From NCBI GenBank assembly GCA_965221105.1, contig OZ244871.1:511648-575647 (forward strand): a stretch of 64,000 nt of DNA, in the 5' to 3' direction. The position numbers and the translations under genes are program-made. Within the stretch, counting starts at the first letter, position 1, and each line of letters starts with the position of its first letter. The stretch is from Pseudomonadales bacterium (GTDB lineage Bacteria > Pseudomonadota > Gammaproteobacteria > Pseudomonadales > GM7GCV1). Below are positions 2,343-7,432 of this stretch, piece by piece. The notes beneath the pieces are model-generated. The model was not told the DNA's origin. It worked only from the letters and a program-made list of their open reading frames with translations, and searched no databases.

Positions 2343-3204
2343 GTGAACGGAGAAAAGGACAACAAGCCTAAGAGCATACTTGTGACCGGCGCGTCATCAG
2401 GTATCGCCAGGGATATTGCGCAATACCTTCACAAGAAGGGGTACAAGGTAATCGCCGCAGCCCGTCGCTTGAATAGAATGGCTCCGCTGAAAGTTCAAGG
2501 CATTTATACCGTGAAGATGGATGGGGCAATTCTGCATCGATTGACACGGCGCTGGCAGACATTCGTAGTCATGTTGGAGAGATTGATGTCCCTGTCAATA
2601 CCGCTGGCGTGATGTCTATGGTGCCAGCAGAACTTGCGGATATGGATGAAATCAAGCACCTCTTCAACATCAACTTGTTCAGCGTCATCAAATTGACCCA
2701 GAAATACTTGCCCCATAGGCGCGCACAGGGCTGGGCCGCGCATTGAATGTCGCTTCCACCGGTGGCATCAGAGCCGTGCCTTTTAACAACGTCTATGCGT
2801 CTTAAAAGTTTGCCCTCGAAGGGTGGACGCGCTGCCTGAAACAGGAAGGCAGATAATATGGTATTGAGGTCGCTGTCATTCGCCCCGGCCCCATCAAAAG
2901 CGACATTTTTGAGGGAAGCTTCGTCAGCGAAAAGGAGTATGCCTGGACGGGACCCTGCAAGGAGGATTTTACCCGCGTGATGAATACGTCAAGCGAACTG
3001 ATGAGTGAGAATAGCCTAGAGCGGGTGTGTATTTCAGAGATTGTGTACGAAGCCATTACCTCTGATTCACTCAAGGTTGGCTATATCGGACCGCAAGAAC
3101 TCGAAGATAGCATACAACACGAGATCCAGAGCCTGACGGACGACGAGCGTGACCGCCGGGCCGCTGAACGCTGGGACTTGTGCGGCATCAAAGAATCAAT
3201 CTAG
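2343..3204 (+). pseudogene. Short-chain dehydrogenase/reductase (SDR), decayed
   Basis: Starts with the Rossmann motif SILVTGASSGIA. Conserved SDR blocks (GEIDVPVNTAGV; LNVASTGGIRAVPFNNVYAS; IEVAVIRPGPIKSDIF) can only be followed by shifting frame near ~2520 and ~2735. Two in-frame TAA codons: 2803..2805 inside the catalytic YxxxK (VYAS*KFALEG) and 2854..2856 (QEGR*YGIEV). Confidence 0.8.
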
Positions 3205-4559: not shown

Positions 4560-4616
4560 TCTGCGATGGCGTTGGTGGTGCGAGAGCTTGAAAAGCAATA
4601 CAGCACCGACCAAAAT

Positions 4617-4679
4617 ATTATTAACATCAGGATGCATATTAACATTAGTAATGTTAATATGCATCCTGATGTTAATAAT
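4617..4679. repeat. 63-bp perfect palindrome (31-nt arms, 1-nt centre); putative operator and/or hairpin
   Basis: attattaacatcaggatgcatattaacatta g taatgttaatatgcatcctgatgttaataat. The arms are exact reverse complements. AT-rich, 58 nt after the MFS stop and 11-20 nt before candidate ATGs (4690/4699) of the next gene. Confidence 0.95.
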
Positions 4680-4689
4680 GAACTGTGAA

Positions 4690-5676
4690 ATGCTGGCAAT
4701 GCATATCGCCACCGAGCTCCAGAGCTATCTCGAAGACACGCTCCACGAACCCGCAAGGGTTTCTGCGCTCCACGGCGCACCCAGCCTCCCTTCGTTTCTT
4801 TCTCGGATGTACAGCTTGCTTGAAGGTCAGGTAGCCGGACGGCGATGTATCTTCCTCGCGACCACAGACAGCACTTTCACACCGTCCGGGATTGCCAAGC
4901 ATGTCGCCCTGGTCCGCCCCACTGTTGACGCGATCATCGTCTTCGTCGCTCCGTGGCTGAGCGCACACAACCGCTCGCGCCTCATCGGACAAGGAATTCC
5001 GTTCGTGGTGCCCGGCAAACAACTCTATATCCCTGACCTCGCGATGGACTTGCGTGAACGCTTCGGCACGCCGAAGCCGAGGCGCTCAGCCGGACTCTCG
5101 CCGGCGGCTCAAGCGCTATTGTTTCATCGTCTCCTGCGGCTCAACAAGACCGCAACAACCCCATCCCTCGCGGCGGCACAGCTGCACTACTCCGCGATGT
5201 CGATCAGCCGTGCGTTCGATGACCTGGTCGTTGCCGGACTTGCCCATACCGAACGACACGGTAGGGAGCGACGCATCCGGTTCGAGGCCGAAGGAAGGCA
5301 ACTGTTCGATGCCGCCCACGACCTGCTGCGCAGCCCGGTGCGCACCGAGAAGTTCATTCTGGACGTTCACGCTGCTCCGCCGTTGAAACTTGCAGGTGAG
5401 AGCGCGCTTGCCGAGTTGTCCAACCTATCCCCGCCCCCGCTGCCGACATTGGCGGTCGCGGCCAATGAATGGAGGATTTTCGCCCAGACCCATGAACTCG
5501 TAGAAACCGGCCGAGATCAGGCTTCCCACATCGTGGAAACCTGGTCATATGACCCAGAAGCCTTATCTACGGAACAGACCGTGGATCCGCTCTCGCTCTA
5601 CGCGCAGTTCCACGATCACCGCGATGAGCGCGTGTCCATGGCTGCGGAACGATTATTGGACGAACTGCCGTGGTAA
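4690..5676 (+). CDS. wHTH (MarR-like) domain protein, AbiEi-like putative antitoxin/regulator
   Basis: The ORF track starts at 4588, but its first ~34 codons merely translate the palindrome, so ATG 4690 or 4699 is more plausible. Central HTH-like segment LSPAAQALLFHRLLRLNKTATTPSLAAAQLHYSAMSISRAFDDLVVAGLAHTERHGRERRIRF. Its stop overlaps the GTG start of the next gene (GTGGTAA). Confidence 0.6.
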   Translation: MLAMHIATELQSYLEDTLHEPARVSALHGAPSLPSFLSRMYSLLEGQVAGRRCIFLATTDSTFTPSGIAKHVALVRPTVDAIIVFVAPWLSAHNRSRLIGQGIPFVVPGKQLYIPDLAMDLRERFGTPKPRRSAGLSPAAQALLFHRLLRLNKTATTPSLAAAQLHYSAMSISRAFDDLVVAGLAHTERHGRERRIRFEAEGRQLFDAAHDLLRSPVRTEKFILDVHAAPPLKLAGESALAELSNLSPPPLPTLAVAANEWRIFAQTHELVETGRDQASHIVETWSYDPEALSTEQTVDPLSLYAQFHDHRDERVSMAAERLLDELPW

Positions 5677-6440
5677 CCGGAATCGGCAAGTTTCGCGAAT
5701 ACTTCGCAGCCCACGAAGATCAATACGCAATCATCGGCGGTAGCGCTTGCGATCTGCTGTTCGACGCTGCCGGCCTCGATTTCAGGGCGACCAAGGACAT
5801 CGACATGGTGCTCTGCGTCGAGGTCGTGGATGTTGAATTCGGACGGGCCTTCCGCGCATTTCTGGAAGCGGGCGGATACCAAGCCCGCGAACGGAGTGAC
5901 GGGCGCAGGGAATTCTATCGCTTCCATCGTCCGACCGACCCAAACTTCCCCTCAATGATCGAACTCTTTGCGCGGTGGCCGGTGGACCTTGATCTGCCTG
6001 AAAATGAAATCTACACGCGGATGCCGGTAGACCAGGACATAGTCAGCCTCTCGGCGATCCTGCTGGACGAAGACTATTTCAAGGCACTCCGGACCGCCAA
6101 ACGCCAGCTCGACGGCGTCACGATCATCGACGAGACCCTACTCATACCCTTCAAGGCCCGTGCGGTTCTCGATCTCACCACTCGCTCCGAAGAGGGCGCA
6201 AACGTCAATCGAAAAGACATCAGGAAACATCGCAACGATGTCTTCCGGCTGGCACAGCTTCTGCCTGAGGATGCAAAGATCGCACTGCCGGATCCCGTCC
6301 GCAGGGATCTTCGCACCTTCGTCGACCTGGTTCAGGCGGACCAGACTCTTGACCCCAGTGCGTTTGACATTGCATTTACTCGGGACGAGGCAGCCGAATT
6401 TCTCCGCACGGTGTACCAGCTGACGGAGAAGCACAGGTGA
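5670..6440 (+). CDS. Nucleotidyltransferase-fold protein, AbiEii/AbiGii-like putative toxin
   Basis: 256 aa. NTase motifs IIGGSACDLL and RATKDIDMVLCVE. Later block FKARAVLDL...RKDIRKHRNDVFRL is as in AbiEii-type proteins. Translationally coupled to 4690..5676. Confidence 0.65.
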   Translation: MVTGIGKFREYFAAHEDQYAIIGGSACDLLFDAAGLDFRATKDIDMVLCVEVVDVEFGRAFRAFLEAGGYQARERSDGRREFYRFHRPTDPNFPSMIELFARWPVDLDLPENEIYTRMPVDQDIVSLSAILLDEDYFKALRTAKRQLDGVTIIDETLLIPFKARAVLDLTTRSEEGANVNRKDIRKHRNDVFRLAQLLPEDAKIALPDPVRRDLRTFVDLVQADQTLDPSAFDIAFTRDEAAEFLRTVYQLTEKHR

Positions 6441-6562
6441 CTCTCACAGGCACCCAGAGGATGGCACTCTCATGCCAGCAGCACTCTGACGACTCTGGCT
6501 TGGGCAGCCCCAGAGGGCCCGAGACCATGTTCAATGATGCGACGGACGAGAAGTGATCGACC

Positions 6563-6857
6563 GTGGACGGTCAATCCTGCATTCTTATGGTTGTTCACTC
6601 GGAGCAGGCCCGGATAATTGGAGGTGCAATCCATCTCAATAGCCCAGAGCCCCGAATGAACAACCTGTTGAAAGATCACACTCGAGTATCCCAGCGTACC
6701 GGCAGCACCTGTGAGTTGTGTGTCTCCGTATGCCACTTCCCACCTGGTACCAGTACATGGAATATGATCGAGCACCGCATGTTCAGCCATGTCACCCAGA
6801 ACTGGCGAGGCAGGTCCCTGGTGAGCCATGAGGTCATCGTCAACCTGATCGGTATGC
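6563..6857 (+). mobile_element. ISAzo13-family DDE transposase, C-terminal fragment
   Basis: VCHFPPGTSTWNMIEHRMFSHVTQNWRGRSLVSHEVIVNLIG matches the conserved C-terminal block of ISAzo13-type transposases. No N-terminal part. The reading frame runs directly into a P450 remnant. Confidence 0.6.
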
Positions 6858-7432
6858 TGATGAACACTGAGGTCAATGGAGAACACCTCAGTGATGAGGA
6901 AGTGCGCTCTTTTCTGGTCAACATTGTCAGTGCCGGACTCGATACCACAAGCCGCCAGACCGCGATTCTGGTCACTCAACTGCTGGAACATCCGGAGCAG
7001 CTTGAACTGCTCCGGCAGCAACCGGAATTGCTCGATCAGGCAATATGGGAGTCGCTGCGCTGCTACCCCACAACGGGTACCTTTCCCCGTGTCGCCCGAT
7101 CCGACACGGAAGTCGTGGGCATCGAGATACCGAAGGGCTCAAGAATATTTATCGCGATCTCTGCGGCAAACCACGACCCCAGCCGCTGGGAAAATCCGCT
7201 GGTCTTTGATATCACGCGCGAAAAGCAGCCAATCATGTCGTTTAACATGGGGTCGCACTCCTGCCTTGGTCAGAATCTTGCCCTGGCAGAAATCAGCATT
7301 GCGCTGCAGGGCCTGCTGGACAAACTGCCAAATCTCCGCAAGGACGAAGATCGCTGGCACAGCCTCAGGTGGTCCGGCTACTATTTCCGCTCTCCCACCC
7401 AGCTTCCCGTGAAGTGGGACATTCCGTCATGA
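6858..7432 (+). pseudogene. Cytochrome P450, C-terminal half only
   Basis: I-helix-like VSAGLDTTS, ExxR (ESLR), heme loop FNMGSHSCLGQNLA. The N-terminal ~200 aa are replaced by the IS fragment. Confidence 0.8.

Follow-up and report, generated by a model that had tools for sequence, protein, structure and literature searches.

Positions 4617 to 6440 of a 64,000-nucleotide stretch from a Pseudomonadales bacterium (GM7GCV1; GenBank assembly GCA_965221105.1, contig OZ244871.1, positions 511,648 to 575,647 of the forward strand; hereafter the window) carry a long perfect palindrome followed by two overlapping genes, here called A and B, which encode a winged-helix regulator and a nucleotidyltransferase. 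With a probability of roughly 60%, we interpret this region as a toxin-antitoxin or abortive-infection module of the AbiE/MenAT-like kind that represses itself and has an antitoxin/regulator of a new family; growth inhibition, repression and neutralisation are the functions that we infer. According to this interpretation, the region would form a self-contained 1.8-kb bicistronic module whose palindrome serves as both promoter and operator. With the MarR/Csa3-type winged helix at its centre, A would occupy four short boxes in the palindrome and thereby repress its own operon, and B, translationally coupled to A, would act as a growth-inhibiting effector through nucleotidyl transfer, most likely by adding nucleotides to tRNA 3′ ends if the analogy with MenT and AbiEii holds. 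A might furthermore neutralise B, plausibly through its conserved C-terminal domain, and, more speculatively, might induce auto-phosphorylation of the invariant Thr41 of B, as AbiEi and MenA do with their toxins. The whole would behave as a mobile toxin-antitoxin/abortive-infection and plasmid-maintenance cassette, and the perfect symmetry of its operator would be a local derivative of a normally imperfect element.

The palindrome (Table 1) consists of two 31-nt arms (4617–4647 and 4649–4679), which are 100% complementary and flank a single central base, G4648. This 63-mer is present in one copy in the window, and none of 100 shuffles matched it. Its G+C content is 15 of 63 positions (24%), compared with 50–61% in the flanks, and an RNA copy is predicted to fold with −48.7 kcal/mol (z = −11.4). 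The arm layout TTAACAT-N4-ATGCAT-N1-TTAACAT contains one ATGCAT core per arm (4632–4637 and 4659–4664) and results in four 7-bp boxes, two pointing rightwards followed by two pointing leftwards. The element ends 11 nt before the ATG at 4690 and 20 nt before the one at 4699. The original prediction, made from the nucleotide letters, had described the exact arms, their AT-richness, the ATGCAT cores and the distance of 11–20 nt to the first plausible ATG, all of which were confirmed by repeat search and direct counting. An Rfam search of the palindrome returned sub-threshold miRNA-precursor models only, of the sort that match any long hairpin, and neither target-site duplications nor terminal repeats were found around 4617–6440.

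The same four-box element occupies the same position upstream of the gene pair in about 75, and thus almost all, of the 79 genomic loci encoding relatives of A (41–85% identical) that were used for comparison. Its consensus is TAACa-N9-TTGCAcAcTAACAtT-N5-TGTTAGcaTGCa-N5-ATGTTAGaAA, followed by approximately 30–35 nt to the conserved N-terminus of A, with two CTAACAT and two ATGTTAG boxes interleaved with a sigma-70-like promoter (TTGCAC, 17 nt, TAGnrT). Of 74 loci, 70 have a first hexamer beginning with TTG (TTGCAC in 38, TTGCAT in 17) and 73 a second hexamer conforming to TAnnnT, and the spacer between them is exactly 17 nt long in 73. The inner inverted boxes fill this spacer, box 1 precedes the −35 hexamer, and box 4 is situated approximately at the expected transcription start; the spacing between boxes 3 and 4 is 18 nt in every locus. 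The four-box layout is also present on plasmids of Shinella, Methylocella, Azospirillum and Croceicoccus and, with GTAAC/GTTAC cores, in Latilactobacillus and Edwardsiella (plasmids) and in Acetoanaerobium. In a distant clade on Pseudomonas megaplasmids, the boxes are of the type GTAAACC/GGTTTAC (TTGTAAACC twice, then GGTTTACAG and GGTTAACAC, set in TTGACT-N17-TACAGT), and the predicted recognition helix of A reads V-T-L-S-K-A in place of the M-[ST]-x-[ST]-R-A of the main family, so that box sequence and recognition helix change together. A kept architecture combined with such co-variation is as predicted for an operator that is read by the adjacent regulator. This suggests that A binds to the boxes, and it agrees with the original proposal of an operator-type element belonging to the downstream operon. 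Viral contigs scanned for the central 17-mer yielded >120 matches, which are uninformative because they probably represent chance hits in AT-rich sequence.

The window copy deviates from the family consensus in three respects, namely ATGCA for TTGCA, TGTTAA for TGTTAG, and a spacing of 18 nt instead of the usual 19 nt between boxes 1 and 2, and it is the combination of these deviations that makes the element perfectly symmetric. The next most symmetric copy, at locus L066, has only 28-nt arms with 2 mismatches. The left arm is the half that departs from the family pattern (ATGCA for TTGCA; one base short between boxes 1 and 2), and its identity to the closest relatives is 0.64, compared with 0.71 for the right arm. 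These differences lend mild support to palindromisation as the source of the symmetry, in which a copy of the right arm would have overwritten the left one. The element had been described as an unusually long, perfect operator. Its length is expected, since the abiE operator of Streptococcus agalactiae is already a 49-bp near-palindrome (PMC3985639); only the perfection is unusual.

The open reading frame of gene A spans 4588..5676, with the in-frame ATGs at 4669 and 4678 falling inside the right palindrome arm; most homologues start either with the counterpart of ATG 4699 (MPIA…) or with the ATG that box 4 contains. The protein was correctly predicted to be larger than AbiEi, with a central helix-turn-helix (residues 132–192 of 325) and an extra N-terminal domain. 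Foldseek finds the winged helix to resemble ArsR and MarR repressors, and a sequence search of the PDB with A yields a winged-helix match to AdcR. The score of the window protein for the MarR winged-helix model is 21.5 bits against a cut-off of 27, which is passed by its relatives at loci L085 (31.5 bits) and L082 (27.6 bits). Outside the winged helix, a profile of the A family found nothing significant among PDB sequences, and the N- and C-terminal domains have no Pfam match; a fold search gave only low-probability matches for the N-terminal domain.

A and B form a unit. The stop codon of A overlaps the start of B, as had been noted originally, and an overlap of the form NTGGTAA/TAG/TGA is present in all 74 readable loci, which suggests translational coupling. 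Remote but full-length homologues of A precede remote homologues of B on plasmids of Pseudomonas, Latilactobacillus and Edwardsiella (BLASTP 1e-30; hhalign 96–97%), and the strict pairing of the two proteins holds from Alphaproteobacteria to Lactobacillales. In comparison with the closest loci, DNA homology extends from 4633 (in most of them) to 6434 and the flanks are unrelated, which defines a compact 1.8-kb cassette inserted in varied surroundings.

B displays the hG[GS]-x(n)-DhD signature (motifs I and II) of AbiEii/DUF1814 (I22-G23-G24, 18 residues, D43-I-D45, with R39 four residues before the first Asp), including the GGSA…DIDMV motif of the original prediction. G23, G24, R39, T41, D43, D45 and K162 are invariant in two alignments of 72 and 64 sequences, and K186, H187 and D190 are invariant in the former and nearly so in the latter. 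The invariant T41 occupies the phospho-acceptor position, a Thr or Ser two residues before the first catalytic Asp, which corresponds to T65 in AbiEii, T39 in MenT1 and S78 in MenT3. In AbiEii, the pattern R-x-T-x-D-x-D comprises R63, T65, D67 and D69, and T65 undergoes phosphorylation with AbiEi present (PMC3985639; bioRxiv 10.64898/2026.01.19.700257). K162-A-R-A165-F166 fits motif III (K..Aa), and K186-H-R-N-D190 retains only the last Asp of motif IV (+DxxD). This mapping is ambiguous, as the Pfam alignments of relatives favour the K162/K186 fit but hhalign pairs K162..D168-L with 'KGRDWYDL' of AbiEii.

Among 64 diverse full-length relatives of B (36–63% identical to it) that were tested against Pfam, 18 match PF08843 (AbiEii) with E-values of 4e-9 to 0.01. 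The best match is P0464 (E = 4e-9, 37.2 bits against a cut-off of 22.5, profile positions 8–171 of 238), and two of the relatives examined, P0464 and P0474 (23.4 bits), pass the cut-off; the full-length homologues that exceed it are 36–45% identical to B. Several relatives give weak matches to the AbiEii models of PADLOC. The AlphaFold2 (AF2) model of B (predicted local distance difference test 81, predicted template modelling score 0.83) has weak Foldseek matches, exclusively to Pol-beta-type nucleotidyltransferases. By these sequence comparisons B is a divergent nucleotidyltransferase of the DUF1814 superfamily and not a recognisable Pfam AbiEii member, its membership at the superfamily level being transitive, via the homologues that match PF08843. 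The family is large: the scored candidates fall into >6,800 clusters at 90% identity, and there are 2,540 representatives at 50% identity (E ≤ 1e-3). Some homologues of B (P0258, encoded at L088:2042–3016, L089 and L090, and P0251, P0255, P0257 and P0259) are 324–325 aa long and end in an additional, fused winged helix of the MarR type; here too, an overlapping gene for a 328-aa A-like protein comes first. The helix and beta-hairpin that follow the DxD strand (…FLEAGGYQARERSDGRREFYRF…; residues 26–108 of P0464, approximately 55–90 of B) match the recognition helix and wing of MarR regulators weakly and without significance (E = 0.16), probably by chance.

The genomic contexts of the module point to mobility and defence. 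Its closest relatives are found in sponge-associated metagenome-assembled genomes (MAGs). In one lineage (L091/L095), it is located between a SIR2/Piwi (short prokaryotic Argonaute) pair on one side and Ea47 with a DNA methylase on the other, in a second (L097–L104) between an HNH endonuclease and an operon of a cyclic oligonucleotide-based antiphage signalling system (SMODS, SAVED, ThiF), and a further copy resides in an ArdC/TraG/RepA region. Homologues of B occur on 49 plasmids, 32 of which are conjugative, and, with 34–40% identity, on three unannotated 'Bacteriophage sp.' contigs from the human gut (MT835494.1, MT835483.1 and MT839224.1). Several genomes, mostly sponge-associated MAGs, hold at least two copies or fragments of the module, some of them within a few kb (L025, 8023–8705; L059, 4006 and 7121; L036, 7121–7439; L004 with L017 in one MAG, L045 with L053 in another). 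Plain chromosomal sites, including that of the window, also hold the module.

Several observations weigh against a toxin-antitoxin module. Even with E-values up to 10 allowed, B itself matches nothing in Pfam, NCBIfam or PADLOC; taken literally, this contradicts the AbiEii-type enzyme of the original prediction, yet the 18 matching homologues support it at the superfamily level. MenT structures are absent from the Foldseek top 50 for B, whose best E-value is 3e-3, a B-family profile reaches MenT1 (8an4) among PDB sequences at E = 0.67 only, and hhalign aligns the family with one canonical AbiEii weakly (E = 0.086). Because A has no detectable relation to AbiEi, the manner in which it would neutralise B is pure inference. 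The surroundings in the window, an MFS (major facilitator superfamily) transporter gene and pseudogene debris, are not a defence island. Furthermore, the −35 hexamer of the window copy is degenerate (ATGCAT) and the promoter actually used in the window may be TTGAAA/CAAAAT further upstream, in which case the palindrome might act from +1 downstream. In favour of a toxin, on the other hand, A is intact in 75 of the 79 loci and, among these, B is intact in 53 and its reading frame shortened in 17, several of the latter being true deletions after the first 10–45 codons; such frequent loss fits a toxin that is lost while its antidote or regulator stays, but the count is biased because the loci were chosen through A.

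The most serious alternative, although we regard it as unlikely, is an ordinary enzyme operon, in which B would be a non-toxic modifying nucleotidyltransferase of a small molecule or antibiotic, like ANT(2'')-Ia within DUF1814, and A a ligand-responsive repressor of the MarR type. The winged helix of A is of this type and its two additional domains could bind a ligand, non-toxin enzymes exist within the DUF1814 superfamily (bioRxiv 10.64898/2026.01.19.700257), and some copies, the one in the window among them, are situated between metabolic or transport genes; moreover, the toxicity of B is presumed by analogy. Against an enzyme operon stand the gene overlap and strict partnership across phyla, the copies in defence islands and beside plasmid replication and transfer genes, the several copies in some genomes, the frequent deletion of B and the invariant Thr41 at the phospho-acceptor position of AbiEii and MenT.

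That the module represents canonical AbiE, a pair of AbiEi (COG5340) and AbiEii (COG2253), is improbable. Gene order, overlap and palindromic operator are like those of abiE (PMC3985639) and relatives of B match PF08843, but for A this assignment is already contradicted by the tests that were run. The Pfam families AbiEi_1, AbiEi_3 and AbiEi_4 match none of 26 + 8 members of the A family, hhalign gives a probability of 0.1% for A and a canonical AbiEi_4 protein, 6Y8Q is absent from the fold-search matches of A, and the winged helix is central instead of N-terminal. AbiEi_2 (COG4861) was matched by a single one of 26 members (E = 0.033), and as no profile-profile comparison with COG4861 was made, remote homology is possible. 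Judged by its sequence, A is not a detectable AbiEi. B, for its part, stays below every AbiEii model, and on the Arcobacter cloacae plasmid pACLO (NZ_CP053834.1, 22179–25650; L086/L111) a distant pair of the A/B type lies directly beside a canonical AbiEi_4/AbiEii pair (PF08843, E = 1e-31), the two being separate modules. The label 'AbiE-like' of the original prediction holds in part: the second protein is placed in the AbiEii/DUF1814 superfamily only transitively and by its motifs, and the regulator is not a detectable AbiEi. The assignment to type IV is likewise dated, since a type VII classification of AbiE has been proposed (bioRxiv 10.64898/2026.01.19.700257).

We consider it very improbable that A is a Csa3-type sensor, with a sensor domain preceding the winged helix, and that B makes a nucleotide signal or modification which A senses in a signalling circuit. 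The PADLOC model CARF3 (Csa3) is matched by 23 of 26 A-family members and the alpha/beta N-terminal domain is Rossmann-like by the order of its secondary structure elements, but the CARF3 match is restricted to the winged-helix part (profile positions 145–205 of 208), no CARF structure is among the top fold-search matches of the N-terminal domain, and the closest relatives of B are tRNA-modifying toxins and not cyclases. Equally little favours the palindrome as mainly a terminator or RNA hairpin barrier for the MFS gene, or as the bidirectional terminator once suggested, because, despite its position 58 nt past the MFS stop codon and the stable hairpin that it would form if transcribed, a terminator search found no such site, the stem is AT-rich with a loop of 1–3 nt and no T-tract behind it, and the element accompanies the A-B module in all loci regardless of the upstream gene.

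Beyond the autorepressed toxin-antitoxin module proposed here, a more far-reaching interpretation is possible, which we put forward tentatively. A and B may constitute a large, unnamed family of nucleotidyltransferase-based defence or addiction systems (~2,500 B clusters at 50% identity, from Alphaproteobacteria to Lactobacillales and including gut phage contigs) with a new three-domain antitoxin, whose N-terminal domain would sense an infection or stress cue, whose winged helix would read the four-box operator in the core promoter and whose C-terminal domain would control the toxin, possibly via auto-phosphorylation of Thr41. If true, sensing, regulation of transcription and control of the toxin would be united in a single polypeptide, an arrangement that has been described neither for AbiE nor for MenAT.

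Downstream of gene B, an open reading frame at 6563–7432 (+) joins a piece of a DDE_Tnp_ISAZ013 transposase (aa 49–98) to the C-terminal half of a cytochrome P450 (aa 91–254); together with 6470–7021 (−), it looks like pseudogene or transposon debris adjoining the module. On the other side, between the genes for a TonB-dependent receptor and the MFS transporter, an 89-aa reading frame at 2343–2612 (+) corresponds to the first 40–50 residues of a short-chain dehydrogenase/epimerase and is a gene fragment.

Table 1. Features of the A-B module, in positions of the window.
Feature	Position	Strand	Basis or remark
Additional promoter-like site (TTGAAA, 17 nt, CAAAAT), immediately before the palindrome	4588..4616	+	Promoter scan; upstream of 4633, where DNA homology to relatives mostly begins
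63-bp perfect palindrome, putative promoter/operator of the A-B operon	4617..4679	.	Repeat search; aligns with the family-wide upstream element
Box 1 (TTAACAT)	4621..4627	+	Matches conserved 'TAACa' columns that precede the −35 hexamer
Putative −35 hexamer (ATGCAT; family TTGCAC or TTGCAT)	4632..4637	+	Promoter count in 74 loci; window copy degenerate
Box 2 (TTAACAT), inner left half-site, within the promoter spacer	4639..4645	+	Family consensus cTAACAt; most conserved columns
Box 3 (ATGTTAA), inner right half-site, overlaps the −10 hexamer	4651..4657	−	Family consensus TGTTAG
Putative −10 hexamer (TAATAT; family TAGnrT)	4655..4660	+	Promoter count in 74 loci
Box 4 (ATGTTAA), near the expected transcription start, holds in-frame ATG 4669	4669..4675	−	Family consensus ATGTTAGaA
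Gene A, three-domain regulator, presumed antitoxin, 325 aa from ATG 4699	4699..5676	+	Other in-frame starts at 4669, 4678 and 4690
A, N-terminal alpha/beta domain, aa 1–121	4699..5061	+	AF2 secondary structure; Rossmann-like by order of elements
A, central MarR/ArsR/Csa3-type winged helix-turn-helix, aa 132–192	5092..5274	+	MarR_2 matches, Foldseek, PDB sequence search, PADLOC CARF3
A, C-terminal domain, aa 215–325, invariant ETW.YDP...VDPLSLY...DERV motifs	5341..5673	+	Alignment, AF2 secondary structure
Overlap of A stop and B start (GTGGTAA)	5670..5676	+	A TAA at 5674–5676, B GTG at 5670
Gene B, 256-aa divergent DUF1814/AbiEii-superfamily nucleotidyltransferase, presumed toxin	5670..6440	+	Homologue searches, AF2, motifs
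B, catalytic motifs I and II (G23 G24 ... R39-A-T41-K-D43-I-D45)	5736..5804	+	Invariant in 72- and 64-homologue sets
B, C-terminal motifs (K162-A-R-A165-F..R172, K186-H-R-N-D190..R193)	6153..6248	+	Invariant or nearly so

Four known systems invite comparison. Like AbiE of S. agalactiae and Lactococcus lactis, the module is bicistronic with the regulator preceding an hGG...R-x-T-x-D-x-D nucleotidyltransferase, has a long near-palindromic operator in its promoter, and occurs both on mobile elements and in defence surroundings. A is, however, unrelated to AbiEi in sequence and has three domains with a central winged helix, whereas AbiEi consists of an N-terminal winged helix and a C-terminal domain; B is too divergent for PF08843, its motif I–II spacer comprises 18 residues compared with 15 in AbiEii (PMC3985639), and four boxes replace two inverted repeats. 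With MenT1, MenT3 and MenT4 of the MenAT systems of Mycobacterium tuberculosis, B shares the DUF1814 superfamily and the location of the phospho-acceptor, but there is no significant direct sequence or fold match, the antitoxin family differs, and modification of tRNA would be a common property by analogy. A third counterpart are the COG4861–COG4849 pairs (Rv0837c–Rv0836c; AbiEi_2), in which a larger winged-helix regulator also lies upstream of a DUF1814 nucleotidyltransferase. Rv0837c is approximately 370 aa long. Motif III of COG4849, KLxAaxxR, resembles K-A-R-A-F of B (PMC3985639). On the regulator side, only the one AbiEi_2 match mentioned above was obtained. The central winged helix of A, in turn, resembles MarR/ArsR repressors and Csa3 (CARF plus winged helix) in fold and sequence. 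MarR repressors typically bind palindromes overlapping the −35 and −10 hexamers. A differs from these proteins in lacking the MarR dimerisation helices, in place of which it has separate N- and C-terminal domains, the former without a CARF match.

As judged from these comparisons, the module would resemble AbiE and MenAT in the way it operates, but the kinship is confined to the level of the toxin superfamily, the partner protein is of a different family, and the subfamily of B slips past the Pfam, NCBIfam and PADLOC models that were searched. Long palindromic operators are already known for AbiE; what is new in detail is the interleaving of four boxes with the core promoter and, in the window, the perfect symmetry. 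Four boxes within a −35/−10 promoter, together with the box-helix co-variation, amount to an unusually clear cis-regulatory design. Current annotation tools overlook the module entirely, its genes being recorded as 'hypothetical protein' or 'MarR family', and it would constitute an additional, widespread branch. The abundance of the family, its several copies per genome and the frequent disappearance of the toxin from sponge-symbiont genomes may also be relevant to the domestication or shedding of such cassettes by symbionts. MenT-type DUF1814 toxins tolerate diverse antitoxin partners (PMC11375011; bioRxiv 10.64898/2026.01.19.700257), and because B keeps the catalytic and phospho-acceptor residues while its partner is larger and unrelated, the pair would provide a natural test of whether the induced auto-phosphorylation described for AbiE and MenAT is general.

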